Origin: a virus
Lineage: Duplodnaviria; Caudoviricetes
IMG/VR virus record: IMGVR_UViG_3300008448_000076
Span: 1 to 61,999 of that record
Strand: one strand, 5' to 3'
DNA length: 61,999 nt
Positions 14,724-50,300 of the stretch are shown piece after piece; the first letter of the stretch is position 1, and the number at the start of each line of letters is the position of its first letter. Below the pieces are notes generated by a model that was not told the origin of the DNA, did not search any database, and saw only the letters and a list, made by a program, of their open reading frames with translations. Position numbers and translations under genes: made by a program.

Positions 14724-15248
14724 TTACTTCATTGGGGTAGAATTATAGAGCAGCATGTCCTTGTTTTGGCTGCTGTTTGACGAGCCAAAGTAGAAAGAAA
14801 TGACCTGTTCAGCTTTTGCGGAAAGATATCCTATCAAGGTTCCGGCAAGAACAGAATCAACTTTTGTGTATCCGAGAAGTGTAGCCACAGTTACTGCTAC
14901 GAATGAGCAGAGGATGAAGATAGCCATGCTCGGAACAAGGTTTGTCCGAAGCGCCATCTGCATTTCACGGGCACTTTTGCGGTCGGCAACAACCAAAGCT
15001 TCAAGATCGATATCAAGCTGCTTCATCTTGATCTGAAAGTCAGAATCGATCCGCTTGATCTCTGTCACCTGATCGGGTGTTGCTGCGGCAAGGACTGCTG
15101 CAAGATCATCCGCCGTGCCGTCTTCACGGCCAAGCAGGCCGATAGACAGCGCACGAACAGCCATCCCGGCAACTGGACCGCCAAGAGCGGTCGCAATCGT
15201 CGGAGCAATCTGCCGAAGTAACGGGCCAAATGTCCCGAGGAGATTCAT
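14724..15248 (-). CDS. Putative holin (3-TM, GTA-type)
   Basis: APTIATALGGP...DRKSAR.M...hydrophobic helices...FYFGSS. Confidence 0.7.
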   Translation of the reverse strand: MNLLGTFGPLLRQIAPTIATALGGPVAGMAVRALSIGLLGREDGTADDLAAVLAAATPDQVTEIKRIDSDFQIKMKQLDIDLEALVVADRKSAREMQMALRTNLVPSMAIFILCSFVAVTVATLLGYTKVDSVLAGTLIGYLSAKAEQVISFYFGSSNSSQNKDMLLYNSTPMK

Positions 15249-15431: not shown

Positions 15432-18347
15432 TTATGGATAGGCAGGGCTTAAAGTTTCGGTAGATAGACGAGGCGTGTAAGCACGACGCGTCAGATCCAT
15501 TCCGGTAGTATACACCGGAGGAGCGGGTTGCTCCACCTTCGGCTCTTTTTTAGAACCTGATGGAGCGCGGTATCTGTCAGCGGCATCTCGGCCACCGCCG
15601 CCGGTAGACAAAACCGGCATATCTCCCTCAAGAACATTCAAAGCGGATGGCGCTGCAGTAGCGACAGGAAGATCCGCGGTACCTTCTATCGCATCGATCT
15701 GCTCCTCGGTGTGACCGAGTGCCCGGAGCACGTCTCTGTAACCGGTCAAAGGTTCTTGAGGAGCGTTGTAGTTCTCACCCAAAACTTCGCTGCGAAGTCC
15801 GTTGAACGTGTAGTCGAGAAGATTTGAAAGCTTGCCTTCTCGTACCGCGGCCTGAGTTGCTTCTGGGGAGGTTACGCCCTTTGTCTGCGCCACCTGTGTT
15901 ACGCCAGCAGGAAGACCCCAGAGAGCCGCCTGCTTTTCTGTGAGACCTGTTTCCCAGCTTCCGCCAAGAGGTCTGTTACCACCAATGCGACGATCCATAA
16001 CATCGAGCGCACCGTAGACACCTTTTGGACCAGAGAAGTAGCCGCCCCAGTAATACTTGTCCGTGATCTCCGGATAGATCTGCTTCTGTATCTCGCGACC
16101 AACCATGGCTGGCTGCTCGTAGTTCGAGAAGAACACGGGGTTCTGATAGTTCGGAAGACGCTGGCCATCTGCAGTCATGATCGCCACGTCGAGCGCACGG
16201 CCTGTGGAGTGAACGCCAGTGTCTGCCGGGCGAACACCGGAAGTGAACTCGTAGTATTGACCAGCAGGAAGCGAAACAGATTCCTTCCGAGCAATATCAA
16301 GCAGACGAGGATCTACACCACGAGTTACTGCGGCATTTTCACGGACCTTAAATGGCCCTGTCCTGCTTTCCAAAGTACGACGTTGGCGTTCCGTCTCATC
16401 CAGAATGTTGTAGATCTGATCGGTGGACATGTTTGCAAGCGCACCGCTGATCTGTGCCGGGGTAGAATTAGCACTGATACCGGCAGCTTCAATGAACGCA
16501 GGGAGACCTGTTGGAGCAGGTGGCTGATACTGTCCCTCATACTGCATGGCAGCAGGCGTTTCCGGAAACGCTTTTGGTGACCCGGTTGGAACCTGAGCGA
16601 AAGTCGGAAGATTAACAGCGGCAGGCTGCTCAGGAGCAGTAATGCCGCGAGTGGTTGGAGCAGGAGGCGCATAACCGTACCCGCCAGATAAAATTTCGCT
16701 GCGGAGACCGGAAGGTTGCGGGCCTTCAACAAGGCTTGCCGATTTAGTTAAGTTTTCAAACTCTGCATCAAGAGATCGCGCAACATTCTGCGCAGCTTCA
16801 CTGCGGAAGCCCGGAGGACCAGCAACTTCGACTGGGGCTGGGGCTTCGGCTCCACGCTCAGGAGGCAGAGGGACAGGGCGCACATCAACAAACTGACGTG
16901 GGTCCAGTGTCATTTGGCCTGTAGAACCTTCCGGCATCTTTGATTGCGGGACGATGTATTGTCTGGCCGAAAGTTCAGCAACCTTTGCCATTTGTTCACC
17001 AGACGGCATACCGCCTTCTGTTGTCACAATGGACCCGTCTTCCGCAACCCTTAACCCGGCTAAGGGGAGATTTTTCATTATGCTCTGTGCAACCTGAGCA
17101 TCCGTTTGGTAATAATTTGTCGCTGGATTATCCGGTGTAAAGTACGCGGGATCGTTCGCGTATTTTGCAGGATTAACGTTAAATGTCGCCCCAAAAACTT
17201 TTGCGGGGACAGTAATGTCATTAAGAGCCTGACGGTACTGTTGGATAGCGGTCTGCATATCAAACGTACCGATGCGGCCCGGCGGCAAACCTTCCAGACT
17301 TAAGGCCGGAGCAGGAGCATTCATGGCTTCTTGCGCCGCTTCACTACGGAAGCCCGGGACATTAAACGAGGTTGTCGGCTGGATAGTAAGACCTATCGGC
17401 GTTACGACCTGATTACCAGTCTGTTCGACGGAAACAGGCGTACCATATTGGTCCTGAAACCGCTCGCGCTGCATTTCATTAAACATCTGCACTTCAGCAG
17501 GAGATACCATGCGGCCAGAGCCGCCCGGGTCAAGATACGCTGGTGTTGCAGGGGCAGTAGGGGTGAAATCATAGCCGCCTGTAGCAGCCTCACTGCGGAA
17601 ACCCGGTGTGCTCGGAGCCACTTGTTGTGGGGCAGAAAGCATGTCCCGAAGGGATACAATGCCGCGTCCTGCGAGATCGCCAAGTTGAGCAGCAGACGGA
17701 AGTTCCGGGGCAGATGGAATCATGCTTCCAAAATACTGCGATGGGTTCGCCATCATCTGGCGATACTGGCCGGTGCTGTAGTCACTGAAATCCAACAGAC
17801 CTTGGCCCGCAGATTGCGCAACATTCGACACAGACTGCATCGTGTTCGCAACAATCGTCGGAACACCGAGGCTTTGCATAAAGTTTGAAGAGTTGCCGCC
17901 ACCCATAGGCGCAAAACTGCCGCCACCAGAGCTGATCATAGTCGGTGTGCCTGCAGTAAGCATGCCACCGCCGCCACCACCTGTGTAAGATGGGCTCTGA
18001 TTGCTGCTGGATGAGTCTCGGCCACCACCGCTGGTATAGTAGCTCCCGCCCCCACCGCCACCAACAGAAGGGTTTGTAGCACCACTGCTACTTACTCCAC
18101 CGGGAGACGAGGACCCGCCGCCAAAGCCGCTTAGGCCCGGGCTAACGCTGTTGGAGGGTGCATCATACGCGCCCATGCCGGGGTTATCGAACTCAAGAAG
18201 TCCTGTTGCCGGGTTCACCGTCCCGCTGCCGCCCATGCGTTTAAGCATAGCTGCTTCTTCAGGCATGATGTGGGCGAGGATCTTATCTCCCCCACGCCCT
18301 TGGGCCTGAAGTTGCTGGGCAATAGCGCGGATGCCGGTGTTTTTCAT
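15432..18347 (-). CDS. 971-aa putative internal virion protein with an M15-like peptidase domain
   Basis: Follows the portal gene; N-terminal GRGGD..LAH domain; HSTGRALD (HxxxxxxD) motif; five G[FL]RSE repeats. Confidence 0.65.
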   Translation of the reverse strand: MKNTGIRAIAQQLQAQGRGGDKILAHIMPEEAAMLKRMGGSGTVNPATGLLEFDNPGMGAYDAPSNSVSPGLSGFGGGSSSPGGVSSSGATNPSVGGGGGGSYYTSGGGRDSSSSNQSPSYTGGGGGGMLTAGTPTMISSGGGSFAPMGGGNSSNFMQSLGVPTIVANTMQSVSNVAQSAGQGLLDFSDYSTGQYRQMMANPSQYFGSMIPSAPELPSAAQLGDLAGRGIVSLRDMLSAPQQVAPSTPGFRSEAATGGYDFTPTAPATPAYLDPGGSGRMVSPAEVQMFNEMQRERFQDQYGTPVSVEQTGNQVVTPIGLTIQPTTSFNVPGFRSEAAQEAMNAPAPALSLEGLPPGRIGTFDMQTAIQQYRQALNDITVPAKVFGATFNVNPAKYANDPAYFTPDNPATNYYQTDAQVAQSIMKNLPLAGLRVAEDGSIVTTEGGMPSGEQMAKVAELSARQYIVPQSKMPEGSTGQMTLDPRQFVDVRPVPLPPERGAEAPAPVEVAGPPGFRSEAAQNVARSLDAEFENLTKSASLVEGPQPSGLRSEILSGGYGYAPPAPTTRGITAPEQPAAVNLPTFAQVPTGSPKAFPETPAAMQYEGQYQPPAPTGLPAFIEAAGISANSTPAQISGALANMSTDQIYNILDETERQRRTLESRTGPFKVRENAAVTRGVDPRLLDIARKESVSLPAGQYYEFTSGVRPADTGVHSTGRALDVAIMTADGQRLPNYQNPVFFSNYEQPAMVGREIQKQIYPEITDKYYWGGYFSGPKGVYGALDVMDRRIGGNRPLGGSWETGLTEKQAALWGLPAGVTQVAQTKGVTSPEATQAAVREGKLSNLLDYTFNGLRSEVLGENYNAPQEPLTGYRDVLRALGHTEEQIDAIEGTADLPVATAAPSALNVLEGDMPVLSTGGGGRDAADRYRAPSGSKKEPKVEQPAPPVYTTGMDLTRRAYTPRLSTETLSPAYP

Positions 18348-20698
18348 TACTGCCTCTTTGTGGCTGCAACACGAGCCAATGCAACATTGGCACGAAGCTG
18401 GGCGATGTCCTCAAGCGACTGGGTCTTCTCACGATCCATCGCAATCTTCTGACGAGCCTTCTCGGCATCAAACTGCAGACGTTGCGCATCATTTTGCGAC
18501 TTCATCTGGAGTTCTTGTGCCTTCAACTGGAGGTTCTGCTGTTGGAGTTGGACCAACGGATCACCTTGTTGCGGCGGAGCAAGGCGCTGCATCAACTGCT
18601 GCATCATTGCTGCTTCAGCCTTTGCGACTTCAACCTGCATCTGATCCGCACTCAACGGTATCATGATACCGGCTTGCTGCATTTGCAGGACGACTTGCTG
18701 CTGTGCTGCAAGAGACATGTGCTCAAGGACGTGCGACATCAGAACGCCGTAAACAGGTGGCGACATCTGGACCAACGGCAACTGCATAAACATCAGATGC
18801 GTTTCCATATGCGCCAGATGATCCTGTTCAGGGAAAACCTTCAACGGTTGTCCACCGGACGGGATCACCATCGACCGCGCATTCTCCAGAGCAGGGCTTT
18901 CCGGCTGAGGCTGAGGAGGGGGCGGAAGAATAAGGTCAACATCCGTGACACCAAGCGCATTATACATGCGCCGATAGGCCTCATAGAGGTTGTGCATCTG
19001 CGGCGCTTGCTGTGCCAGTTGCAATTGCTGCTGGGCAAGCGTCACACGCTGCGTCATCGAGAAGATGTTCGGGTCGCTGACCGGAACGATGTCAATTCTG
19101 TCATCAAAATCCGCAGATTTGATGACACTCTCGCCACCAGACACCTCATACGGGTACTCAGGCGGCAGATATTCTGCAATAACCTTCGCAATAAGCTTGA
19201 GTTCCTGCATTTGTGCGTAGTGCAGGCGCTTGTGGACCGCCGACATGATGCGGCTGCCACGTTCAAGCATAGCCATTGCGGTGCCGACCGGCATTTCTTG
19301 GTTGGAATCACCCATTCCAAGGTCAGTCGTACCAATAAACTTCTGCGTAGCGTCGATACAGAAGCCCAAAAGCTGGAAAAGAGTACCTGACGGCTCCTTA
19401 TACGGCAGCGGAAGCAGACTCTGGGCCAAATCACCACCCGGAGCATCGACATCTCGCCACTCGCCCGGCTGAATAGGACTTTGGTCCTCTACTCGCAGGC
19501 CCTTTGCCTTGAAGCCAGCTGGCAAATTCGACAAAGTACCGGCATCAATCAGCTGACGGAGGATAGAAGTAGCCGAACGGGACAGGTTTCCAAGCAAATG
19601 GACGAGGCCGAAGCCATAAAAGCCCATGCCCGGCAGGAATTTGTAGTGAACGAAGTACTGTTTCTTCCGCTTCTGGGGGTCTGTTGGGTTCCAATTGCGG
19701 CGGATCGACAGAACTTTGTTCGATTTTGTCTCAAAAGTGACGATATACGGCAGCATAAGCCCCGTTTCCTCGTCATTTTCGTCCTTGTCCTCAAAGCCTT
19801 CGAGATCCAAGAAGCAATGGCACTCGTAAATCGTGTAGTCGTCCGGCTCTGCAGAGGGTTCTACCCCCTGAATTTTGTCCATCTTCTGCTGAATTGTGTC
19901 GGTATCAGAATAGGACGGCTTTCCTATATCGATATCGCGATAAAAACCGCTGAACTGGAGACGCTTCAACTCTGCCGGGCTATAATGCAGGACGTGTGTA
20001 ACACGCTCTGTGGTCATCAGATCACGGGCAGAGTACGGGACGATCAAGTCTTTGGGCAGAATATAGGGTGACGTTGCCCGGCCAAGGTAGCCGTCATACG
20101 AAACCTTCTTGAATGCCGAGCCGCCGTAGCCGACGAAGTACAGCATCTGATCGAAATCAGGGTCATACTCTTCCATGACCTGAGTGATCTGGTAATTCAT
20201 GAACGTCTTGACGCGTTCGGCCTGCGCTTCCTTCTCAGGGGTCACCTTGCCAAGGATCTGGGTACGAACAGGGCCGCCCGGCGGCAGCAGTTCCTTGTAG
20301 GACTGCGCCTGAAACTGGTTCACAGCCTCGTTCAGGATAGGATGTGTAACGCCCGTTGCGCCATCGAACGGCTCAGTGCGGTCATCATAGGTCAGACCGA
20401 GGAGATCCATCCCCTGCTCATAGACCTTTTCCCACTCTGCCCGGCTTGTCAGGTCATCTTCGATGAAGCCCTGAAGGTCCTTTGCCAGTTTGCCCAGCTT
20501 CCCGTCGTCAATGTACTCAGCAAGGTTGGCTTCAAAAGGAATGTTTGCCATCTCAAGGGCATCTTCCTCTTCCTCCGAAAGTTCGTAGGCTTCCTCTTCG
20601 GATTCCATGGACGCTTCTTCGTCCGTCAACTCATCCATATTTTCTTCTGGATCCGCATAAATCGGAGAGACGACGTTGTTAATCGGAGTTCTAGCCAT
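18347..20698 (-). CDS. Portal protein (P22-like)
   Basis: 783 aa directly after TerL; HPIL.EA..QFQA, GFYGFGL, PLPYKEPS; Gln-rich coiled-coil tail. Confidence 0.85.
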   Translation of the reverse strand: MARTPINNVVSPIYADPEENMDELTDEEASMESEEEAYELSEEEEDALEMANIPFEANLAEYIDDGKLGKLAKDLQGFIEDDLTSRAEWEKVYEQGMDLLGLTYDDRTEPFDGATGVTHPILNEAVNQFQAQSYKELLPPGGPVRTQILGKVTPEKEAQAERVKTFMNYQITQVMEEYDPDFDQMLYFVGYGGSAFKKVSYDGYLGRATSPYILPKDLIVPYSARDLMTTERVTHVLHYSPAELKRLQFSGFYRDIDIGKPSYSDTDTIQQKMDKIQGVEPSAEPDDYTIYECHCFLDLEGFEDKDENDEETGLMLPYIVTFETKSNKVLSIRRNWNPTDPQKRKKQYFVHYKFLPGMGFYGFGLVHLLGNLSRSATSILRQLIDAGTLSNLPAGFKAKGLRVEDQSPIQPGEWRDVDAPGGDLAQSLLPLPYKEPSGTLFQLLGFCIDATQKFIGTTDLGMGDSNQEMPVGTAMAMLERGSRIMSAVHKRLHYAQMQELKLIAKVIAEYLPPEYPYEVSGGESVIKSADFDDRIDIVPVSDPNIFSMTQRVTLAQQQLQLAQQAPQMHNLYEAYRRMYNALGVTDVDLILPPPPQPQPESPALENARSMVIPSGGQPLKVFPEQDHLAHMETHLMFMQLPLVQMSPPVYGVLMSHVLEHMSLAAQQQVVLQMQQAGIMIPLSADQMQVEVAKAEAAMMQQLMQRLAPPQQGDPLVQLQQQNLQLKAQELQMKSQNDAQRLQFDAEKARQKIAMDREKTQSLEDIAQLRANVALARVAATKRQ

Positions 20699-22182
20699 CA
20701 GTAATAAACCCTTCTTCCGACCTTCTCGACGCGCTCGACTTCAAAGTCATCCGGATGCGTCAAGAACCCGCCCTGCCTGAAACGCATAAGTGCCTGTGTC
20801 GCGGCGTCACAATGGTCATCATGCTCCGCATAAGGGAAAGATGCCATCTCTTCAATGACCTCTTCCGCCCAACTCGTTTCAGGATACCACACAAGACCCG
20901 CTTCAAACAATGGGGCAACGGAGTTCATGCGGCTAAACTTGTCGTTCCCGCGGCTCGGGGTAAAGTTCACGACCGGGATGCCCGTTGACCGGAGTTCCTG
21001 AGACAGTGGCAGACCGGCAGCCTTCGCTTCGATCAGGACCGTTTCCGGATCCCAGTATTTGTACTCTTCATATGCAATGCGCTTCAGGTCCGGGAACTCC
21101 CATCGCCCCTTCTTGGCATCCAGCAAAATCACATTCGGGGGACTGTCCTCTGTGGGATAGAACACGCCCCATGTGTGGATCGCACTGAAGTCGGCCCGGT
21201 TGCTTTTCAAGAAAGCCGTATCGTAGCTTTGCATGACATAGTGCAGACGAGGGACATCCGTTTTGTCCCACTTCTTCCACCAGTCACGTTTAATAATCGA
21301 CGCCGAGTCCGATGTCGGCGTTTGCATGTATTGGGCGTTCCACTTCGAGAGCGGAATCGAAGCCCTGACTTTTTCCAGTTCCTCAAGCTTCCAGTACTCA
21401 GGCCACAGCGGCTTGCCGCTCGGCAGGATGGCCGGGAACTCAATGATCTCCCACTGGTCAGCCTTCGGATCCTGAGCAGATTGTTTCAGCAGACGGGCGG
21501 TCAAATCATTGTCGCCCCATCGCGTCATAACAAGGATAATAGCACCACCGGGCTGAAGACGCTGACGAGGACCAGCAGTATACCAATCCCAAGCGTTTTC
21601 AAGCGCAGTGGGGGACTGGGCGTCTTGTTCGGAGTGGGGGTCATCGACAATAAAGAGATCAGCACCGCGACCAGCAATGTTGCCTCCGACACCTGAAGCG
21701 TAATATTCACCACCGCCATCCGTTTCCCAGCGATACGCTGCTTTACTGTCTGAACGAAGCTTGACCCCGAAAACCTCCTGGTAGTCTTCCTGCTCCATAA
21801 GGTTCTTCACCTTACGACCGAAACGCACGGACAGATCAGCGGTGTGGGTTGCCTGCATGATCTTCAACTCAGGCCTGCGCCCGATCATCCACGCCGGAAA
21901 CAGGAAACTTGCGAACTCTGACTTCGTATGACGAGGAGGGAGGTTAATGATCACGCGCTTCAACTCACCGCGGGCAATCGCCTCAAACTTCTCGGCGATC
22001 ATCTTGTGATGTGCGCCAGCAATAAAGTTCGGCCACACAAACTTCACGAAATCCAAGAAGCTGTCGCGAGCCTTCTCTTCCTTCGTCTTGACGACAGCGT
22101 AGTCCAAAAGATTCGCAAATTTCTTCAAGACCTCTTCAGGCACAGAAGAAAGGTCAGAGGTCAAAGGAGAGATGTCAGTCAT
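20698..22182 (-). CDS. terL: Terminase large subunit
   Basis: INLPPRHTKS (Walker A variant), IVDDP (Walker B), MTRW, QSYDTA, HDDHCDA nuclease motif. Confidence 0.95.
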   Translation of the reverse strand: MTDISPLTSDLSSVPEEVLKKFANLLDYAVVKTKEEKARDSFLDFVKFVWPNFIAGAHHKMIAEKFEAIARGELKRVIINLPPRHTKSEFASFLFPAWMIGRRPELKIMQATHTADLSVRFGRKVKNLMEQEDYQEVFGVKLRSDSKAAYRWETDGGGEYYASGVGGNIAGRGADLFIVDDPHSEQDAQSPTALENAWDWYTAGPRQRLQPGGAIILVMTRWGDNDLTARLLKQSAQDPKADQWEIIEFPAILPSGKPLWPEYWKLEELEKVRASIPLSKWNAQYMQTPTSDSASIIKRDWWKKWDKTDVPRLHYVMQSYDTAFLKSNRADFSAIHTWGVFYPTEDSPPNVILLDAKKGRWEFPDLKRIAYEEYKYWDPETVLIEAKAAGLPLSQELRSTGIPVVNFTPSRGNDKFSRMNSVAPLFEAGLVWYPETSWAEEVIEEMASFPYAEHDDHCDAATQALMRFRQGGFLTHPDDFEVERVEKVGRRVYY

Positions 22183-22910
22183 TAACGAGGACCCATCGGA
22201 CGACCACGGCGCTTTAACTCTTCAGCTGCCATTCTCTCAAGCTCATTCAGGAAATCCATATTTTCCATGAGATAGACCGTACCCTGATTGATCTGTGTCG
22301 GGTCACCTTTCAGCTCACCCTCACTCTCAATGTCGCCGTAATACTTCTGCATTAAAGCGCGAACTGCAATCTCATTCTCGGAGTAATTCTTTCTTGCGTT
22401 AATGCGCTCAAGCTTCTTTGCTTTCTCGGGGTCGTAGTCAGAATATATCAGCTCATCAATGCCACGGTGAATCCCTTCATGGGTGGGCGTCGAGCCAGAG
22501 TTACGCGGGTCACGCTTGCTGTAAGTATAGTCCCCAAGGTAGAACCCGGCTGTGTTAACCAGAGGAGGGGTTTTACCAACGTCTTCCGAAAGAACCGTCT
22601 TGCTGGGCTCAAAGCCAAGGGCTGCAATACCGCTGCGTCGGGACGCAATGTAGTTCCGCATCAGATATTCGCGGCGCTGTTCATCCATAGGTTTCCTACG
22701 GATCTCTGCTTCCAGCAAAGCCTTTATCCGACGTTTCTCGTCATCCGTCTGGGCAACGTCAAACGCCAACTCTTTCGCCGACATTTGAAGCATCGATGCT
22801 GTGGGGCTATCCGCTCCTCGACGAAGTTCTCCTGCGGCATCCATTCCATAAGTCGCGTCATACTTGTCCCAAAGAGCGACATCTTCTTTTGTCGGGAAAT
22901 CACTTGCCAT
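22182..22910 (-). CDS. Putative zincin (HExxH) protein
   Basis: THEGIHRG with downstream NE; TAATG-coupled to terL; start could be 22922. Confidence 0.55.
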   Translation of the reverse strand: MASDFPTKEDVALWDKYDATYGMDAAGELRRGADSPTASMLQMSAKELAFDVAQTDDEKRRIKALLEAEIRRKPMDEQRREYLMRNYIASRRSGIAALGFEPSKTVLSEDVGKTPPLVNTAGFYLGDYTYSKRDPRNSGSTPTHEGIHRGIDELIYSDYDPEKAKKLERINARKNYSENEIAVRALMQKYYGDIESEGELKGDPTQINQGTVYLMENMDFLNELERMAAEELKRRGRPMGPR

Positions 22911-22964
22911 AGGTGTGTCCAAGGTCAGAGGGCAAAGGATAGTGGTTGATTATCAGCATAACAT

Positions 22965-23468
22965 ATGGATAAGTTTCAAGCCATGCGTATTGATCTTTAC
23001 GACATTGCACGGTTCTTTTCCAGAGTGGAAGTGAAAAAGCAGCCGAACTGCTGGGTGTACAAAGGTTCCGTCAAGTACGACGGATACCCGTCCTTCAGTC
23101 TCAACGGGGGAAGTATCGGCGGTCATCGGTTCTGTTACATGGTGTTCCATGGACCAATTCCAGAGGATATGGTCGTTCGACATCGGTGCGACAATCCGCG
23201 GTGCGTTAACCCCTATCATCTGGAGACTGGCACCCAACAAGATAACATGATGGACAAATTTGTCCGGGGACGTACCGCAAAAGGTACACGGAACGGGAAT
23301 GCAAAGCTGACTGAGGCTGACGTTAGAAAGATAGTCGAGGACAAGCGATACTACTGGGAGATCGCCAAGGACTACGGTGTCTGCCCAGACTCAGTCAAGA
23401 ACATAAAGTCCGGGAAGAACTGGTCACATGTAACCGGGATCAAGCCGAAGAAGATTCGCAAAAAATAA
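22965..23468 (+). CDS. HNH endonuclease with C-terminal HTH (homing-type)
   Basis: CW...GY...HR...VRHRCDNPRCVNPYHL..GT..DN..D; AKLTE HTH. Confidence 0.9.
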   Translation: MDKFQAMRIDLYDIARFFSRVEVKKQPNCWVYKGSVKYDGYPSFSLNGGSIGGHRFCYMVFHGPIPEDMVVRHRCDNPRCVNPYHLETGTQQDNMMDKFVRGRTAKGTRNGNAKLTEADVRKIVEDKRYYWEIAKDYGVCPDSVKNIKSGKNWSHVTGIKPKKIRKK

Positions 23469-23842
23469 TATACCCCCGGGGGTGGGGGACCCTTGTCGGC
23501 TTCACCGTTTTAGGGGGTCGGCATAATTTTGGTTTTTGCTCATAATCCGTGAAAAATCGGGTATACAGTGGGCGACGTATCAATGGGGGGTCGATTAGGG
23601 GGGTCGTGGTCTGTTCGGCTGCCGAAACCGAAACCGAGAGCGGGGATAGGGACCCGTGGCAGTGGGCAGGGCGCGACGCGGCAGGGACCGAAGGCAGTGG
23701 GCAGTGCACAGCGTATGATGCGCAGGGAGCATTGCGTTATGCGCACAGCAGACATGCGCAATATAAGTTGATTTATTTTTGACAATATGATTACATGATC
23801 ATGCCGAGACCAAATCAGTCCGGCTGATAGGGAGCAATAACA

Positions 23843-24181
23843 ATGTCTGATTTTGAATTCGAAGAAGAGACTGAAGTTGATGAACGCCCATACATCGGGC
23901 CATGGGTTGTGTGCATGTTCTTAGTTGACATGGCCTATGGTGGCGGAGAGGAGGGCGGGTGGTGGTACACGTACGGGGATCCCGTGCTTACATCGCATAT
24001 GCGAGTATTCACTGATCACGCCGAGGCCATGGCCTATGTTCAAGGCCTTGACGCTGAACTTGACCGGATGAACGAAAAACGTCCAAAGATTACCAGTACC
24101 AAATCCATTGGTCGGTTTGAGGCTCGGATCTGCGAGGGGTGGCCCAAAGCTTTCCCTAGCCGGATCCCGCGTTACTCTTAA
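23843..24181 (+). CDS. Early hypothetical protein (AYGGGEEGGWWY)
   Basis: GGGAG RBS. Confidence 0.8.
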   Translation: MSDFEFEEETEVDERPYIGPWVVCMFLVDMAYGGGEEGGWWYTYGDPVLTSHMRVFTDHAEAMAYVQGLDAELDRMNEKRPKITSTKSIGRFEARICEGWPKAFPSRIPRYS

Positions 24182-24192
24182 AGTTTAGAATA

Positions 24193-24217
24193 CAGGCGCG
24201 GCATGGTGTCGCGCCTG
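24193..24217 (+). repeat. Intergenic hairpin CAGGCGCGGCA-TGG-TGTCGCGCCTG
   Basis: Same core as the hairpins at 24455 and 24743, with compensatory changes in the outer pairs. Confidence 0.75.
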
Positions 24218-24242
24218 CCCATTGTCCAGAGGAGAAAGAGCA

Positions 24243-24440
24243 ATGGACACTTTCACAGCATGCATGATCGTCGAAGGCGTAGAAGAAGCAGAAGAGTATG
24301 AGATCATTAACGCGTGGCAATATCTGATCGACACTGGCGTCGTTTGGACTTTGCAGGGGTTCTATGGTCGCATGGCTCGGGATCTGATCGAGCGTGGGAT
24401 CTGCTACCTTAACAATGCAGAAGAAGAAGCTTTTGCTTAA
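24243..24440 (+). CDS. Early hypothetical protein (AWQYLIDTG..W.LQG.YGR)
   Basis: GAGGAG RBS; ATG at 24243. Confidence 0.8.
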   Translation: MDTFTACMIVEGVEEAEEYEIINAWQYLIDTGVVWTLQGFYGRMARDLIERGICYLNNAEEEAFA

Positions 24441-24441
24441 C

Positions 24442-24479
24442 AATTGCCACTTATCCGGCGCGGCATAGTGTCGCGTCGG
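24442..24479 (+). repeat. 23-bp repeat copy 1 (AATTGCCACTTATCCGGCGCGGC) plus hairpin
   Basis: Exact copies start at 24442, 24730 and 24957. Confidence 0.9.
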
Positions 24480-24500
24480 TTTATCACAGGGAGAAATAAG

Positions 24501-24728
24501 ATGCGTCCTATCTATGAAATAGCACATGAGATTAGCAGGGACTGGAAAAAGCCCTACTTCGGCGCAGTGCCATATCTTGACGCAATGCGTTCATTAAACA
24601 GCGTGACCGATAGCTTCTATCAGGACAGCGCAAAGTCAGTTGTGCTTTACTTTCTGTCCAATGCGAACACATGGCGCGGCGAGACTGCTAAACGCGTGAA
24701 GGCCGAACTCAAGGCAATGGTGAAATAA
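24501..24728 (+). CDS. Early hypothetical protein (MRPIYEIA...YFGAVPYL...WRGE)
   Basis: GGGAG RBS; ATG at 24501. Confidence 0.8.
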   Translation: MRPIYEIAHEISRDWKKPYFGAVPYLDAMRSLNSVTDSFYQDSAKSVVLYFLSNANTWRGETAKRVKAELKAMVK

Positions 24729-24729
24729 T

Positions 24730-24769
24730 AATTGCCACTTATCCGGCGCGGCACAATGTCGCGTCGGAT
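24730..24769 (+). repeat. 23-bp repeat copy 2 plus hairpin
   Basis: Exact repeat; ATCCGGCGCGGCA-CAA-TGTCGCGTCGGAT. Confidence 0.9.
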
Positions 24770-24790
24770 TTGTTTTTAGGGAGAAAGAAC

Positions 24791-24955
24791 ATGGCGTGGG
24801 TTATCGTGAATACAGAAGAACCTGACTTATGCTGGTCTAATACCGATGGATGGGTCGAAGATAACTATGACACATTCAGTGACGAAGAACGCGAGATACT
24901 GCACTTGCCAATAGGCGGTGCATGGGAGCGCGTTCCTTGGCAAAAGAAAGATTAA
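24791..24955 (+). CDS. Early microprotein (LCWSNTDGW...LHLPIGG.W)
   Basis: GGGAG RBS; ATG at 24791. Confidence 0.75.
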   Translation: MAWVIVNTEEPDLCWSNTDGWVEDNYDTFSDEEREILHLPIGGAWERVPWQKKD

Positions 24956-24956
24956 T

Positions 24957-25003
24957 AATTGCCACTTATCCGGCGCGGCCCGTGCTTTGTCGGCGCGGGT
25001 CGC
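24957..25003 (+). repeat. 23-bp repeat copy 3 plus a variant hairpin
   Basis: Exact repeat; GCGGCCCGTGC pairs with GCGCGGGTCGC. Confidence 0.85.
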
Positions 25004-25026
25004 ATTTAATGCATACCTGCTATGAT

Positions 25027-25055
25027 TTGATTTTTATTTGACCATTTCCTATATT
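25027..25055 (+). promoter_or_regulatory. Putative sigma70 promoter
   Basis: TTGATT-17 nt-TATATT. Confidence 0.5.
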
Positions 25056-25089
25056 CCATTTTGTCATGTCCAATAGAAAGGGAGAAAAC

Positions 25090-25737
25090 ATGATCACTTT
25101 GAAAGAAGCACATGAGGCAGGAAAAGTCTCAGTATCCAATGGCAAAATGCCAGGGTCCACTTTTGCGATATCTGCCCGGGCTTGCAATGTCGGGGGGAAA
25201 CTTGCCGAACTCAAGGGTTCAGTTTGCCACAAATGCTATGCCCTGAAATTGCAGAACTTGAGACCTTCAGTAAATACCGGCTGGACTGGAAACTTAGATA
25301 AGGCCGTCCGCATGATCAATTCTGATCCGGCGCGATGGGTCGCGTTCATGGCCTTTCAAATAAACAAGGCCTATGAAAAAACCGGCGAGGCCTTCCATCG
25401 GTGGTTTGACAGTGGAGACCTGCAATCTGTCCAGATGCTAGACGCGATATGCGAAGTGGCCCGCGCTACCCCGCAGATCAAGCATTGGCTCCCGACGCGT
25501 GAGGGCAAAATTCTAAAGGCCTTTACCGGCTCACTGCCCGACAATCTCGTGATCCGCGTATCAAGTCCCATGATCGACGACAAGCCCATGGCGGGTTACA
25601 TCTGGACAAGCACAGTCCACAAGCACAGTGAGCCAGAAGGCCATGTGTGCCCTGCCCGTCATCAAGGCAATTCATGCGGATCCTGCCGCGCTTGCTGGTC
25701 AGACGCTGTTCGCAATATTTCCTATCCCCTCCACTAG
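25090..25737 (+). CDS. Gp88-family Cys-rich protein (radical-SAM-like)
   Basis: KMPG...C...CHKCYA...RWFDSGD...HWLPTRE...CPA...CGSCRACW. Confidence 0.75.
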   Translation: MITLKEAHEAGKVSVSNGKMPGSTFAISARACNVGGKLAELKGSVCHKCYALKLQNLRPSVNTGWTGNLDKAVRMINSDPARWVAFMAFQINKAYEKTGEAFHRWFDSGDLQSVQMLDAICEVARATPQIKHWLPTREGKILKAFTGSLPDNLVIRVSSPMIDDKPMAGYIWTSTVHKHSEPEGHVCPARHQGNSCGSCRACWSDAVRNISYPLH

Positions 25738-25745
25738 GGGATAGG
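25721..25745. other. Perfect 10-bp hairpin overlapping the stop codon
   Basis: CCTATCCCCT-CCACT-AGGGGATAGG. Confidence 0.55.
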
Positions 25746-25814
25746 TTATAACAGTTTCCGGCGCGTTGATGCGTGGCAACCCTCCCTTGCCTTCTATCGC
25801 TCCGCGCCCACCTT

Positions 25815-25851
25815 GGCCCCGTGTTGGTTTTACCGGCACGGGGTCTTTTTT
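25815..25851 (+). terminator. Rho-independent terminator
   Basis: GGCCCCGTGTTGGT-TTT-ACCGGCACGGGGTC followed by a T run. Confidence 0.85.
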
Positions 25852-25853
25852 AT

Positions 25854-26030
25854 TGCCACTTGACCGGCGCAGATTCTGCTTATCCGGCGCGATGTTTCAC
25901 GTGAAACAATTCCTACTTGACCGGCGCGTCAGTCATCAAGATCCTACTTGACCGGCGCGTCAGTCATTACCGGCTCTCAAACCACAGTTTTAAATGGTCA
26001 AATAACAAATGCCACTTGACCGGCGCAGAT
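25854..26030 (+). repeat. Cluster of CTT(GA/AT)CCGGCGC repeats
   Basis: 21-bp pair 25854-25874/26010-26030; 26-bp pair 25911-25936/25942-25967; another copy at 25879-25891. Confidence 0.9.
25893..25908. promoter_or_regulatory. parS: Consensus chromosomal parS site
   Basis: Perfect palindrome TGTTTCACGTGAAACA; intergenic. Confidence 0.8.
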
Positions 26031-26374
26031 AAGACCAATTCCGGCTGACAACTGCCCTTTGTCGCCAGTTCAAGCAGAGATTTGCATGAATAAATTTCTA
26101 CGGTTTGAGCCCGTGGACGGCTAACCAAGTTCCAGACGTTCGGGAAAATTAACGATCTCCTTGTTTGCCATGCAATCTGCGCAGGTCGCCATAAAGATAT
26201 GTCTATATCATTGTTGGTCTTGCATACCTTGTTTTCGAGCCAAAACTCTCCGAATTCCGCGGCCCCGTTCACGTCCGGCATGCCCGCTCCGGCCCATGCT
26301 TCAACTCTCGTCCAGTGGACCTCTAGCGGGCTCGATTTCAAGGACTGCCACATCTTCTTTTCGGTCTGAAACAG
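25967..26374 (-). CDS. PD-(D/E)xK nuclease (Holliday-junction resolvase/VRR-NUC-like)
   Basis: RVE...GMPD...WLENK...RPAQIAW; start is either CTG 26374 or ATG 26353. Confidence 0.75.
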   Translation of the reverse strand: MFQTEKKMWQSLKSSPLEVHWTRVEAWAGAGMPDVNGAAEFGEFWLENKVCKTNNDIDISLWRPAQIAWQTRRSLIFPNVWNLVSRPRAQTVEIYSCKSLLELATKGSCQPELVLSAPVKWHLLFDHLKLWFESR

Positions 26375-26891
26375 GGTTGATCTCCTTCATCTTGGCGAGG
26401 TTGGCAAGTGCAGGGAATTCCTGCGTAAGCTTCTGGATCTCTCGAAGCACCTCATCTTTGCTCATCTGGTCGATCCGGCCCACAAGGATCTCGGAGCGGG
26501 AGATGTACAGGCCCGCCGCCATGCCTCGCTGTTTCTCCGCGGCCACTGCCGCCGCTGTCTGCCCGTTCTGCAATGCGATGTCGCGGATCTTGGCAAGTTC
26601 CGTAATGTGGTTGTCGTATGTGACTTCGTACTTCTTCGCCAGTTCTGCTTTGATCTCGCGGATGCGGGCGACGATGTTCGGGTGGTCTCGGCCATTCAAA
26701 AACTTAGAGGCTTGTGTGGCCGCGTCCACGTATCCGGCGAGCCGTGCCGCCTCGGTCTGGGTCACGTTCTGGGTCGCGTAGATCTGGCAGAATTTCTCCT
26801 GCATCTCCGTGATCCCGTAATCCAAAAGAGGAATTGCTGAGGGATCTGAAGTACTTACCTTAACTTTGTGCGTTCGCTTTCTATCCGTCAC
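26301..26891 (-). CDS. terS: Terminase small subunit
   Basis: QEKFC..Y...TEAARLAGY...AS..L...I...I; AAVAAE..RG..AGLY; GTG start with AAGGA RBS. Confidence 0.75.
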   Translation of the reverse strand: MTDRKRTHKVKVSTSDPSAIPLLDYGITEMQEKFCQIYATQNVTQTEAARLAGYVDAATQASKFLNGRDHPNIVARIREIKAELAKKYEVTYDNHITELAKIRDIALQNGQTAAAVAAEKQRGMAAGLYISRSEILVGRIDQMSKDEVLREIQKLTQEFPALANLAKMKEINPVSDRKEDVAVLEIEPARGPLDES

Positions 26892-27014
26892 AGAGGATTC
26901 CTTTCCTACACAGGACTGCTGTCCTATTTCCAGTATTAAGGCCAAAAACCAAATGGAAAAAAAATTTATATCGGAACAAAAAATGATGTCGGTCGGGCGG
27001 ATCAGATGGTTTGT

Positions 27015-46889: not shown

Positions 46890-47344
46890 ACTGGATAGTC
46901 ACGCCACGTCAGCTGGAAGTGAGGACCATCCGCGAACTTCGGAAGGTCCACTTCTACCACCGGTCCATTGCCATTTAACAAGCGCCAGAGGCCGCCCCAT
47001 TCAACGGGGACTTCAAGCTGTTCTGCAGCCTGACGGAAAGCCTCTGCGATCTTGAAGTAAAAAGGCCAGTCCCAACGAACAGCTTCGTTGGGATCCTTCA
47101 TGTTATCGCCGTCAAGATCAATATATGCAGCCACATCGACAGCATGCCCCGTAAGATGGCGGGACTTCAGTGTCTTTGATGCACCGGCAGCAAGCAATTG
47201 CTTCTGGCGTTCAAGTGTGCGCAGTCCTTCCGTGATAATAAACGGAACAGGGCAAAGCTGAAGGGCGATCTGAGCCACTTCAACAAGGTCATCATGCACA
47301 CCAACGAGGCGGCTCTTCGAGCGAGCGTCAAACTCTTTCATCAT
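46886..47344 (-). CDS. Endolysin, peptidase M15 (L-Ala-D-Glu peptidase-like)
   Basis: EGLRT..RQ, SRHLTGHAVD, WGG.W, DGPHFQL. Confidence 0.9.
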   Translation of the reverse strand: MMKEFDARSKSRLVGVHDDLVEVAQIALQLCPVPFIITEGLRTLERQKQLLAAGASKTLKSRHLTGHAVDVAAYIDLDGDNMKDPNEAVRWDWPFYFKIAEAFRQAAEQLEVPVEWGGLWRLLNGNGPVVEVDLPKFADGPHFQLTWRDYPV

Positions 47345-50300
47345 TCATATCCGTATTGACGACCGAACTTGAAGGCTTGTTCTGCCGTTTGGTTTTTAAC
47401 ATTGCGAAGAGCGGTAAGGCGCTTGGACTTCTCGTCACCAGAAAGATTCGGATCCAAGCGAATGGACTTCATCTGCTTGTTGATCTCTGTAATCTGGTTC
47501 TCAGCCTTGTTCAAGACCTTGTAGACAGCCTCAGCTGCAGGATCATCCTTCAGCTTTTCCTTCAAGATTTCGAAGTTATTGGTGACACCGGCATCATCGA
47601 TGGACGTAACAACCTGCGTCACGGAAGACTTCATGTCGTAGAAGTCCTTGACGAAGCGGTTTCGCATCAACTCCGGATCCTTGACAAAGCGGCTAAGACC
47701 CGTGGCATTCGCCCCGATGCCGACGAGAGATGTCGGATCTCCGAAGTAGCCGGAAGGACGGGTGCCTGCGCCAGAGAAGATGCCGTCTACCATCGAGGCA
47801 AAGACTGAGCCCATCGTTCCGAAGTAACCGCGGAGCAAAACGTCTGCCTGTTTCGGAGAGATCACAGGGACAACGTAGTTTGCGAGAGCCTTCGCAATCT
47901 CTGTAGTGTTCTCGTCAGCGCGTTCTTCCTGCGGGCGACGCTTGTCAGCGATGGTTTCGATGTCTTGCCAAGTGAACATGTCCTTGTTCACCACGACTTC
48001 TGCGATGGGCTTCACCGCTTGCGGGATCGGGTTGAACAGGAACGTCGAGGACATAATCTGAAGAAGGCCGTCAGTGAACTGAGCGCCTTCTTTTTCACGG
48101 ATCGAGTCCATCATGAGCGCAGGAATAGCGCCAAAGACAGAACCAATTTCGAATGCTCGCGGCGCTGCAATGACTGTGTCACCAACACGAAAGTAGTTGT
48201 TTGCAATCTTGTCTTCGACCGACAGCTTCTTATACCAATCGTCGTCGCCGTAGATCATGTTGAGGGCAAGTTCGATTGCGGTGAGTTGAAGGCCGCGGAT
48301 AACGAGCGCCTTCGGGATACCAATGGTGCCCTTTGCAAGCCAAGATTCTGGAGCGCCTGCTGTGCCACGCTCGATCAAACGATAGAGACCTTGAACACGG
48401 GCATTCAAGAATGGGATCATCGGGATAAGGTGCATAAGGATGTTACCTGCAACACCACCACCGGCACCAGAACGATTGAAGTTTGTCAGGTTGACAGCTT
48501 CATACGCAGCCGTTGTCGGATCCATCCCCTTCTTCTTGACGAGATAGTCAAAGTACGTGACGCGTGAAGCCATTTCGGTTGCTTCACCGATGTGCTCCAA
48601 CTTGTCGAGGGCCTTCATCGCAAGACCCCAAGGCTTGGAGATATCAGCAGACGTGTACGCACGACGCATGAACTCTGCCTGATCACGGAAGCCTGCACCG
48701 TATCCGTAACCACCGAAACCTGTCGCAGCAAGAATCGCCTGATACGATGGGCCTTTGCGGTACACTTCACGGAAGTTTCTGAATGTGCCAGCGATCAAGT
48801 CCGTGATCGGCATACCTGTCTTGACGTATGTATCGATGATACCGCGCCACAAGTTTGCGATCTGGAACGGAGGCGCAATCGTAACACCTGTACGCAGGAC
48901 GTTTGCAACCTTCGACGCAGCCTCAACAGCCGCACCAAGTTGCTTCGGAGACATCGCCGACAATGCTTGGAACATCGGCACGTCGTTGATCTTAAGGAAC
49001 TGATCGCCGCCGTTTACCCGGTATGTGATGACGCCATCAGCACCCGGCTTGCCGACCTTCTGCGCAATGCTGGGATCGCCGTAAGCAATGGCTGCCTCAG
49101 CCACCTTGTTGTAGGCAATGTTCTTAAGGCCTGCCGCAACAATGCTGCTGTAGTTGCGCAGTGTGTTGTCGTAGAATCCTTGCTCAATTGCACCACCCGC
49201 TGACACGGCTTGGTTGAAAGCCGTGATGTTGCGGGGATTGTCCAAGGCTTTTGTGATCGCAGGATGCAACGTACCGTTCGGATCACCCTTTTCTTGGGCA
49301 CGATAGAACGGGGTGTAGAACATCGACATGAAGCGTTCGCCGAGTTCTTGCGGGATCAGGCCGCTGTTGATTGCAAACTGAACCATGCCTTTGTTGAAGG
49401 CTTGGAACTCATCAGCGACTTCTTTGAAGTGAGCGGGAGCAGACCGAACAATCTCTTCAAGTTCAGCGTCGGTGAAAGGTTTCCCCGTCACAGGATTCTT
49501 GTAGCCGAAGCCGGAGTAACCAGCCTTCCTGCGCAGATCAAGTTCACGTCGAGCAATGGCGTACTGCTGGAAAGCGTTTTCGTCTCTTGTACCAATGCGG
49601 TCGAATATCTTGATCAAACCACCGTTTGTATTATCAAAGCGCATGTCGCCCGTCTTCTTGTCGTAGACAAGAAAGCCGCTGTTCAAAAGACCAGCAACGC
49701 GGCCTTGTACGTTTTGCATGCGCTCAAGTGTTTGACCCACACCTTCGAAACCAGCACGGTTCATGAACGGAATTGCAGATGCCACACTGTTTCTGAAGAT
49801 GGCTTGAGCATGAGACTCACCTTCTTCACGACCAGTGATTGCATCGAACAAGCGGCCCCACACACCCTTTTGTTTAGTGGCAGTGGTGAACTGACCGAGT
49901 TGCTGGATCTCAACAGGGACATCATTGCCGATAAGAGCAGGGTTGACACCGAGATCTTTGACATCTGCCTCTGTGAGAGGATGCGCTTCGCTCACAAGAC
50001 GGTCGCCGGTAGAAGTGTAGCCGGGTTCGACACGCGTAACGATAGCGCCTTCTGGTGTAGTAGCTTCCTGTGCAGTATCTACAGCGCTAGAGAGAGGTGT
50101 CCTCTTGCCCGCCTTCGCAGCAGCCTTTGCTTTAGCCTTGGCTGACGGTGTTGCACCATAGGTCACACCCTTCAAAGGAACTCCCGCAGCAGTGGCTTCC
50201 TTCTGGGCATCAAAAACATTCGCATATCTACGCGTGATATTCTTCTCAGGGGTAGCCTCGACATTACCCCACATCTCGGAGAGCAGCTGCTCGAACGCAC

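Follow-up and report, generated by a model that had tools for sequence, protein, structure and literature searches.

The DNA considered here, hereafter the window, is the entire IMG/VR virus record IMGVR_UViG_3300008448_000076 (61,999 b; CheckV 100%, without end repeats), the genome of a tailed phage of the Caudoviricetes. Between its gene for the small terminase subunit (TerS) and a unit that encodes a GP88-like protein lies a perfect 16-bp palindrome that is identical to parS, the site at which the partition protein ParB is loaded onto bacterial chromosomes. ParB-parS is the most widespread chromosome segregation system of bacteria. The chromosomal (ParABS) consensus, TGTTNCACGTGAAACA, is listed with variants that include TGTTCCACGTGGAACA, NGTTNCACGTGAAACN, and GTTTCACGTGAAAC in Table 1 of PMC7022226, and the window copy agrees with that consensus at 16/16 positions. 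A preliminary description, made from the letters of the window alone, had placed a perfect parS at 25893–25908 and had called it intergenic, just past a terminator, and flanked by convergent units; both the site and, by the map of genes and hairpins, its setting were confirmed exactly (Table 1). The palindrome begins 48 nucleotides (nt) past a terminator-like hairpin, the direct repeat R2 starts 3 nt after it, and the palindrome is located 393 nt past the end of the TerS gene and 3.7 kb upstream of the start of the gene for the large terminase subunit (TerL).

Table 1. Features of the parS locus and of related loci. Positions refer to the window unless a contig (L number) or another record is named; ORF, open reading frame.
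Feature	Position	Strand	Description	Basis
parS	25893-25908	none	perfect 16-bp palindrome TGTTTCACGTGAAACA	exact match to chromosomal-type consensus
Portal gene	18347-20698	-	left of parS	
TerL	20698-22182	-	large terminase subunit	phrog_38, E 6e-111
GP88-like protein	25066-25737	+	Cys-rich C-terminus; convergent with TerS unit	PF17338, E 6.4e-19
Terminator-like hairpin	25815-25845	+	14 pairs, then TTTTTTATTG; closes GP88-like unit	consensus scan only
Direct repeat R1	25854-25874	+	TGCCACTTGACCGGCGCAGAT; ends 19 nt before parS	repeat search
Variant repeat core	25880-25891	+	TTATCCGGCGCG; 1 nt before parS	pattern match
Direct repeats R2 and R3	25911-25936, 25942-25967	+	identical 26-nt repeats, TCCTACTTGACCGGCGCGTCAGTCAT	repeat search
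Direct repeat R4	26010-26030	+	identical to R1; within 3' part of 128-aa ORF	repeat search
128-aa ORF	25967-26353	-	downstream of TerS	phrog_2165 ("DNA helicase" label), E 1.2e-13
TerS	26301-26945	-	small terminase subunit	PF03592, E 7.4e-7; phrog_51, E 5.9e-15
123-aa ORF of HTVC027P	L240:1305-1676 (HTVC027P record ~16216-16587)	+	flanked by gp31 and gp32	absent from GenBank annotation
Five-copy parS arrays	L147:10535-11462; L075:2657-3444		mostly non-coding DNA	
Palindrome TCCGCGATATCGCGGA/TCGGCGATATCGCCGA	L176:3901, L179:3083, L177:6001, L180:5380		16 bp; ~1.9 kb upstream of TerL	

At the base composition of the window, 1.3e-5 exact copies of the 16-mer are expected by chance. The site is present as a single copy, with no second match at ≤3 mismatches in the whole window; a match at that relaxed threshold would not be significant alone, as shuffled sequences gave a mean of 0.44 matches, with one or more in 35 of 100 shuffles. 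Half-sites of parS are not enriched in the window (6 found versus 10.3 expected). Chromosomal parS usually occurs as clustered multiple copies and the window has one, and the site lies on a phage genome rather than near the origin of a parAB-encoding replicon.

The phage encodes a primase, helicases, a family A DNA polymerase, a portal protein, terminase, and tail proteins. Six-frame searches of the whole window with the profiles ParB_N, HTH_ParB, AAA_31, CbiA, Phage_integrase, and Resolvase returned no match at E ≤ 1, while profile searches for Par, integrase, and resolvase families did give matches in control genomes, which bears out the earlier statement that the phage has no parA/parB or integrase. 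Its closest named relatives, by TerL identity, are HTVC027P (62%), 023Pt_psg01 (60%), HTVC023P (57%), and the freshwater phage DSL-LC04 (57%). HTVC027P and HTVC023P infect Pelagibacter, the one cultured host known for the HTVC023P-type family. A tRNA scan of the window found zero tRNA genes and hence no clue to the host there, and megablast of positions 15000–37000 against a phage collection gave no match. The sequencing runs that contain the window stretch are labelled as fungus, freshwater, and soil metagenomes, and no RNA run is listed among them.

The 16-mer recurs among relatives of this phage. A scan of IMG/VR for TGTTNCACGTGNAACA returned at least 119 stretches, as compared with 59 stretches across the entire collection, each with a single copy, for a palindromic control word of the same composition. 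Among the parS matches listed, 22 of the 119 loci were kin of the window (tblastn with window ORFs) versus 2 of the 59 control loci (Fisher p 0.003). Twenty of these 22 share with the window TerL at 54–65%, portal at 45–55%, TerS at 40–44%, or GP88 at 43–47% identity, and the remaining two, L070 and L108, are weak members. Among loci selected by their proteins, the exact word occurs in 7 of 80 TerL-selected loci (737 kb), and a match at ≤2 mismatches in 12. In a set of 114 protein-selected loci (958,786 b), parS is the commonest of just 12 distinct perfect 16-bp palindromes, with exact copies in 7 loci as opposed to ~2e-4 copies expected and 0 matches for two reversed control words; L002 adds the variant TGTTCCACGTGGAACA. 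The parS-bearing relatives are HTVC023P-type podophages with TerL 54–95% identical to that of the window. For instance, HTVC027P has the 15/16 copy CGTTTCACGTGAAACA. No parS at ≤2 mismatches is present in HTVC023P, 023Pt_psg01, DSL-LC04, or Synechococcus phage MinM2.

More distant kin carry arrays. L147 and L075 (TerL 27–28% identical; L147 also has a portal at 35% and a capsid at 41% identity) each possess five perfect copies of TGTTTCACGTGAAACA that span ~0.9 kb and lie at TerL or a short way upstream of it. With a completeness of 21% and 11%, respectively, the two contigs are fragmentary, and neither yielded a ParB_N or HTH_ParB match. In layout, these clusters are centromere-like arrays.

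Related phages were also searched at the syntenic position, as the preliminary description had proposed. Eighteen metagenome contigs were picked by similarity to the 128-aa protein alone, and 15 of them had ≥100 nt of sequence downstream. The exact 16-mer was found in 4 of these 15 loci (L321, L323, L325, and L326), 19–45 nt past the end of the protein match. In L322 and L324, three parS half-sites occur instead, one of GTGGAACA and two of TGTTCCAC in tandem, within ~50 nt and ~60–110 nt past the homologue of the 128-aa ORF. The repeat GCGCCGGT(C/A)AAGTAGGA precedes the palindrome by 1–3 nt on the minus strand in the window and in all four loci with the exact word. Three viral contigs (L002, L003, and L004) have a TerS 83–85% identical to that of the window. 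Among them, L002 has TGTTCCACGTGGAACA at the syntenic place, a symmetric double change, preceded on the minus strand at the same 1–3 nt spacing by the repeat form GCGCCGGATAAGTAGA, and L004 ends before the corresponding position. A GP88-based search of viral contigs added 3 new loci only, of which 0 were syntenic and 0 had parS.

The surroundings of the word differ widely from phage to phage. When flanks of ±80 nt were clustered by identity (threshold 0.58; background median 0.46), 35 family sites fell into 20 contexts, and since these contexts are unrelated, the 16-mer alone is what the sites have in common. In one context with six members, identity is 72% in the flanks and 100% in the 16-mer. 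Some copies lie within genes. The HTVC027P copy occupies residues 66–71 of the unannotated 123-aa ORF, in the frame F-H-V-K; this ORF is homologous to the 128-aa ORF of the window (35% identity, E 3e-14) and has a sub-threshold match to Hjc resolvase (E 0.072), and 023Pt_psg01 has a half-site only at the position that matches the in-gene parS of HTVC027P. In L093 and L106, the word encodes V-(P/S)-R-E-T near the start of the gene that follows the portal gene, and, as read off the alignment, synonymous changes are absent from the four same-residue codons within the word but present in most of those in the flanks. In L052, the word is part of a Q/P-rich linker, with the frame V-S/P-R-E-T. The occurrence of the word inside coding sequence, in differing genes and frames, points to selection on the DNA word itself.

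Where the word does vary, it varies in a familiar manner. The variants TGTTCCACGTGGAACA, TGTTTCACGTGGAACA, GGTTTCACGTGAAACA, and CGTTTCACGTGAAACA are changed mainly at positions 1, 5, 12, and 16, which are the positions that vary among the chromosomal parS sites of PMC7022226 (Table 1). The word itself is unchanged across family phages that range from 35% to 54% GC, and the choice of variant follows GC content with a weak trend.

Location is the other shared property of the sites. At all parS loci with ≥45% identity to any window protein, the site is found beside TerS, TerL, portal, GP88, or the first head genes; none lies beside replication or tail genes, which are equally conserved and detectable. 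Many sites are located 0–350 bp upstream of TerL and others 0.9–1.5 kb upstream, so that most fall within 0–1.5 kb, and the distance extends to ~3.7–4 kb in the window, HTVC027P, and L090. In a few relatives, parS directly follows TerL or the portal gene. This strong bias hints at an added local role.

As to the protein that reads the word, the complete genomes that bear parS (the window, HTVC027P, G058, and G102) gave no ParB_N or HTH_ParB match, and any ParB_N match occurred in 7 of the 119 parS-bearing IMG/VR records among the matches listed. Likewise, none of the window ORFs of ≥80 aa is common exclusively to the parS-bearing complete genomes. Variation of the chromosomal type, a word kept across a wide range of GC content, the lack of a phage ParB, and the lack of a co-occurring ORF together favour a conserved reader provided by the host, namely ParB. 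The 16-mer of the window is probably an orphan host-type parS, that is, a predicted loading site for the ParB of the host. At the level of the family, parS is a recurrent, patchy trait of HTVC023P-like virulent podophages and is kept near the terminase and portal genes.

It had been proposed in the preliminary description that the phage borrows host ParB, either to position or segregate its DNA or to disturb the host by titration. The proposal is supported in part. A conserved host reader, for which ParB is the obvious candidate, is favoured by the recurrent contexts, the five-copy arrays, and the chromosomal type of variation, and borrowing is plausible and has a precedent in phage phi29 (see below); the two downstream effects are hypotheses. 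From these data, we infer that host ParB binds to phage parS, and the consequences may be envisaged as follows. Chromosomal ParB, a CTP-dependent clamp, would nucleate and load on phage DNA at the 16-mer, and the ParA machinery of the host, with the pole or SMC, would engage the ParB-loaded phage genomes. The preferred consequence is that phage genomes would be positioned, or inherited by both daughters, while the infected slow-growing host still divides. As the number of phage copies rises, titration of ParB off the host origin would be unavoidable. Positioning or segregation, titration of ParB, and control at the terminase locus are the conceivable effects.

A number of findings weigh against an orphan parS read by host ParB. 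The site is patchy: at ≤2 mismatches, it was present in 4 of 22 TerL-selected loci with ≥5 kb of upstream sequence and in 9 of 53 with ≥1.5 kb upstream, and the corresponding figures are 1 of 34 for TerS-selected loci, 4 of 15 for syntenic loci, and 1 of 5 for named relatives. It is missing even from L003, whose TerS is 85% identical to that of the window; the remaining sequence looks as though the DNA between two flanking repeat copies had been deleted. Patchy presence and the absence in L003 imply that the site is dispensable. Absence or degeneration in relatives had been named beforehand as grounds for abandoning the idea, and the outcome is divided, in that most relatives lack the site and in others it recurs far above chance. 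In addition, a scan of ~185,000 species genomes with TerL peptide patterns, a method that detects close relatives only, returned a single 29%-identical fragment and no close relative in prophage or episomal form, which leaves a stable carrier state without support. In one set of loci, group A (L167–L174 and L181), TerL is closely preceded by a small HNH gene whose ribosome site and start codon overlap with the word, and translation may contribute to conservation of the word there; in L173 and L174, the centre has changed from CACGTG to CATATG, by which a GTG start becomes ATG, a departure from chromosomal variation. Symmetric double substitutions are equally expected of a hairpin stem, and another palindrome of relatives, TCCGCGATATCGCGGA versus TCGGCGATATCGCCGA, covaries symmetrically as well; its sequence suggests a further dyad-symmetric protein site or stem in that clade. 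Lastly, the bias toward terminase and portal genes is not predicted by simple partition or titration, and it would suit a packaging or regulatory element.

Such an element could be read by a phage protein, either TerS, at a pac or cos region with the flanking repeats as binding sites, or a late-gene regulator, in which case identity with parS would be convergent or irrelevant. A pac or cos site should adjoin or lie within the terminase genes, and the palindrome is near them in essentially all family members, often 0–350 bp upstream of TerL or of the HNH-TerL unit. In the window, direct repeats of one orientation surround it immediately downstream of the TerS operon, with a repeat-parS spacing that is kept in relatives, and this array may resemble packaging sites that are built of repeats. 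A packaging site should also accompany the terminase in every relative. All members of the family have TerS, yet the word is absent in L003, from 33 of 34 loci chosen by TerS, and from 44 of 53 chosen by TerL with ≥1.5 kb upstream; where it is present, it stays the same even as TerS identity falls to 40%. None of the window ORFs occurs solely together with the site, and the repeat motif is also found 1–1.5 kb away, between small genes, without parS. Moreover, if the site were phage-specific, agreement with the bacterial consensus at 16/16 positions in 20 contexts and variation mainly where chromosomal parS varies would be unexpected. A phage reader is accordingly considered unlikely, although it is the foremost of the alternatives. 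Another alternative is a structural role in RNA or DNA, such as a 3' untranslated region hairpin of the TerS operon or a cruciform, with effects on RNA stability, termination, or translation control. The palindrome is perfect and adjoins a terminator, its T5/A12 to C5/G12 changes preserve pairing, and in group A it overlaps a start codon. However, any paired sequence would serve for a structure, yet one and the same word is found in 20 contexts; if the loop is minimal, the stem has six pairs only, mostly A-T, the asymmetric variant in L093 breaks pairing, and five spaced identical copies, as in L147 and L075, are ill-suited to a terminator. A purely structural function is hence very improbable.

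The word might also be functionless, either a chance occurrence or a neutrally carried remnant of captured host DNA. Its absence from most relatives would fit, and the control word of the same composition still occurred 59 times in IMG/VR, from which it is clear that single hits can be chance. Chance does not account for 7 exact copies in 959 kb of relatives, where 2e-4 are expected, any more than for one in the window, and the family is enriched over the control word; the word is conserved while its flanks diverge, and those flanks consist of phage-specific repeats rather than host-like DNA. This explanation is judged quite improbable, though slightly less so than a structural one. A chimeric join with host DNA, which the preliminary description had also named as a possible undoing of the site, was not seen and is hardly credible. 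Logan contigs from two runs span parS with 0 differences (X1, record 1, 24800–25986; X2, record 6, 25375–25967), where X1 or X2 is possibly the source sample of the window, and a freshwater run of another study covers it as well (X6, record 13, 25717–25914). No joint is reported in these contigs, so nothing indicates chimeric assembly; the run contigs do break in the repeats at ~25960–26030, and nothing else in favour of an artefact was found. The same arrangement is, moreover, present in the independent metagenome contigs L321, L323, L325, and L326.

The flanking repeats belong to a wider set. The core TTATCCGGCGCG is also found at 24451, 24739, and 24966 (5 matches versus 0.20 expected), and the looser motif ACTT(G/A)(A/T)CCGGCGC occurs in one orientation at 24449, 24737, 24964, 25858, 25880, 25915, 25946, and 26014. 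All 8 matches (1.5 expected) are restricted to a 1.6-kb accessory block between TerS and TerL. The three left copies come after stop codons and form the 5' half of plus-strand hairpins with G-T pairs. A sigma-70 promoter within the repeats was considered and rejected, as none could be fitted to the motif and a consensus scan found none there. In relatives, copies of a GCGCCGGTAAAGT-type repeat are distributed all along the corresponding TerS-TerL region. The TerS and TerL genes of the window are ~4 kb apart (22182–26300), with small genes between them that include an opposite-strand block at 23843–25737, and the interval is also variable in HTVC027P (gp30–gp39). The 128-aa ORF, which had no match in a Pfam search, is possibly a small nuclease. 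A non-coding stretch of ~400 nt (23440–23840) separates the divergent minus-strand structural block from the plus-strand small genes; it contains G-rich direct repeats (GGGGGTCG three times, GGCAGTGGGCAG twice), three copies of ATGCGCA, and a promoter-like A+T-rich end, and could be an origin or control region. Elsewhere in the genome, a 1,798-aa ORF (47341–52737, minus strand) matches PHROGs of unknown function over its C-terminal 680 residues and a virion structural family at its N-terminus. This ORF probably encodes an internal protein of the virion or an ejection protein.

The most abundant phages of the sea include relatives of HTVC023P-type pelagiphages, and the ecological weight of the trait derives from a family whose abundant members come from ocean and fresh water and to which HTVC027P, a pelagiphage in culture, belongs. 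If phage genomes do ride ParABS through division, this would offer a molecular explanation of carrier-state infection in oligotrophs that grow slowly. More generally, the hypothesis makes predictions on how a lytic phage might survive division of its host, halt the cell cycle of that host, or time its packaging. A starting point in culture is HTVC027P, whose in-gene site matches at 15/16 positions, and an orphan parS near a terminase gene is a simple genomic marker with which phage collections can be screened.

Several known systems invite comparison. Centromere-like segregation sites on phage DNA are familiar from the plasmid prophages P1 (parABS) and N15 (sopABC), both of which supply ParA and ParB themselves and rely on distinct sites of their own. 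No such cassette is present in the window, where the site has no ParA or ParB beside it and is of the host type instead. With chromosomal parS, the window shares the identical 16-bp palindrome, and phage copies vary mostly at the same four positions. The differences are that the site lies away from any origin and parAB operon, on a lytic phage and in single copy, and that ParB binding is predicted only. The genomic island SGI1, as described in PMC10954446, hijacks the parABS system of an IncC helper plasmid and so resembles the window as a parasitic element that uses a partition system it does not encode. By the same account, SGI1 is an integrative mobilisable island rather than a phage, and its target is the system of a helper plasmid rather than that of the host chromosome.

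The nearest counterpart is the parS of the virulent Bacillus phage phi29 (and of Nf). According to PMC2731898, which cites Meijer et al. (2005), phi29 carries five parS sites for the host ParB, Spo0J, and uses the host segregation machinery for entrapment in the spore; PMC9437464 concurs on the use of parS and Spo0J. The phi29 genome (NC_011048) was found to contain four copies of TGTTTCACGTGGAACA and one site at 3 mismatches, versus 0.21 expected. The preliminary description had ranked the window site as its best candidate for an undescribed system, a claim that does not survive this precedent, given that phi29 already uses host Spo0J via parS, and borrowing of host ParB is therefore not new in kind. 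To our knowledge, spore entrapment of phi29 is the only documented use of ParB-parS by a virulent phage. Literature searches for host-type parS on lytic phages other than phi29 found none, and the main text of PMC9599517, which deals with HTVC023P-type genomes, has 0 mentions of parS or ParB, although its supplements may hold annotations. When the 119 parS loci were clustered, two large groups emerged among the IMG/VR matches listed, one of 33 loci (the window family and distant kin) and one of 25 loci (L038–L153), with phi29 homologues in 20 of the latter. The phi29-like IMG/VR contigs are 11–19 kb long, several are flagged as having inverted terminal repeats, and each contains 1–4 exact parS words. 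These contigs extend the phi29 trait to uncultivated relatives.

Like phi29, the window phage is a virulent podophage without its own ParA, ParB, or integrase that carries host-type parS above chance. The phi29 word TGTTTCACGTGGAACA is the same mixed variant that occurs in the family members L061 and L115, and the phi29 copy at 17243 directly follows the packaging ATPase gene, beside a bidirectional terminator between convergent units, a setting similar to that in the window. If a second, unrelated lineage keeps the host word, then borrowing of ParB is a more general phage strategy. Pelagibacter is not known to form spores, so spore entrapment is unlikely to be the purpose in the window family, and the proposed segregation would be a non-sporulating counterpart of the Spo0J-dependent entrapment of phi29. 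A bolder proposal, offered tentatively and held to be somewhat doubtful, is that capture of host ParB through an orphan parS is a convergent strategy of virulent podophages, arrived at independently by the phi29 group and the HTVC023P-like group. Placed at the terminase genes, it would do something new in presumed non-sporulating hosts, whereby unpackaged genomes would ride ParABS through division or a timer based on ParB titration would delay terminase expression or packaging until genome copies are numerous enough. phi29 also differs from the window phage in several ways. It has Spo0A boxes, which are sites for a master regulator of the host by which the lytic cycle is suspended; in the window, the alphaproteobacterial CtrA-type box TTAA-N7-TTAA, the sole regulator site tried, had 0 matches versus 0.49 expected. 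The sites of phi29 are five and scattered; that of the window is single and perfect, and those of its family lie close to the terminase and portal genes. Finally, phi29 is a 19-kb protein-primed phage of an unrelated lineage, and the window phage, with a genome of 62 kb, a family A DNA polymerase, a primase, and helicases, is a second, unrelated lineage with the phi29-type trait.

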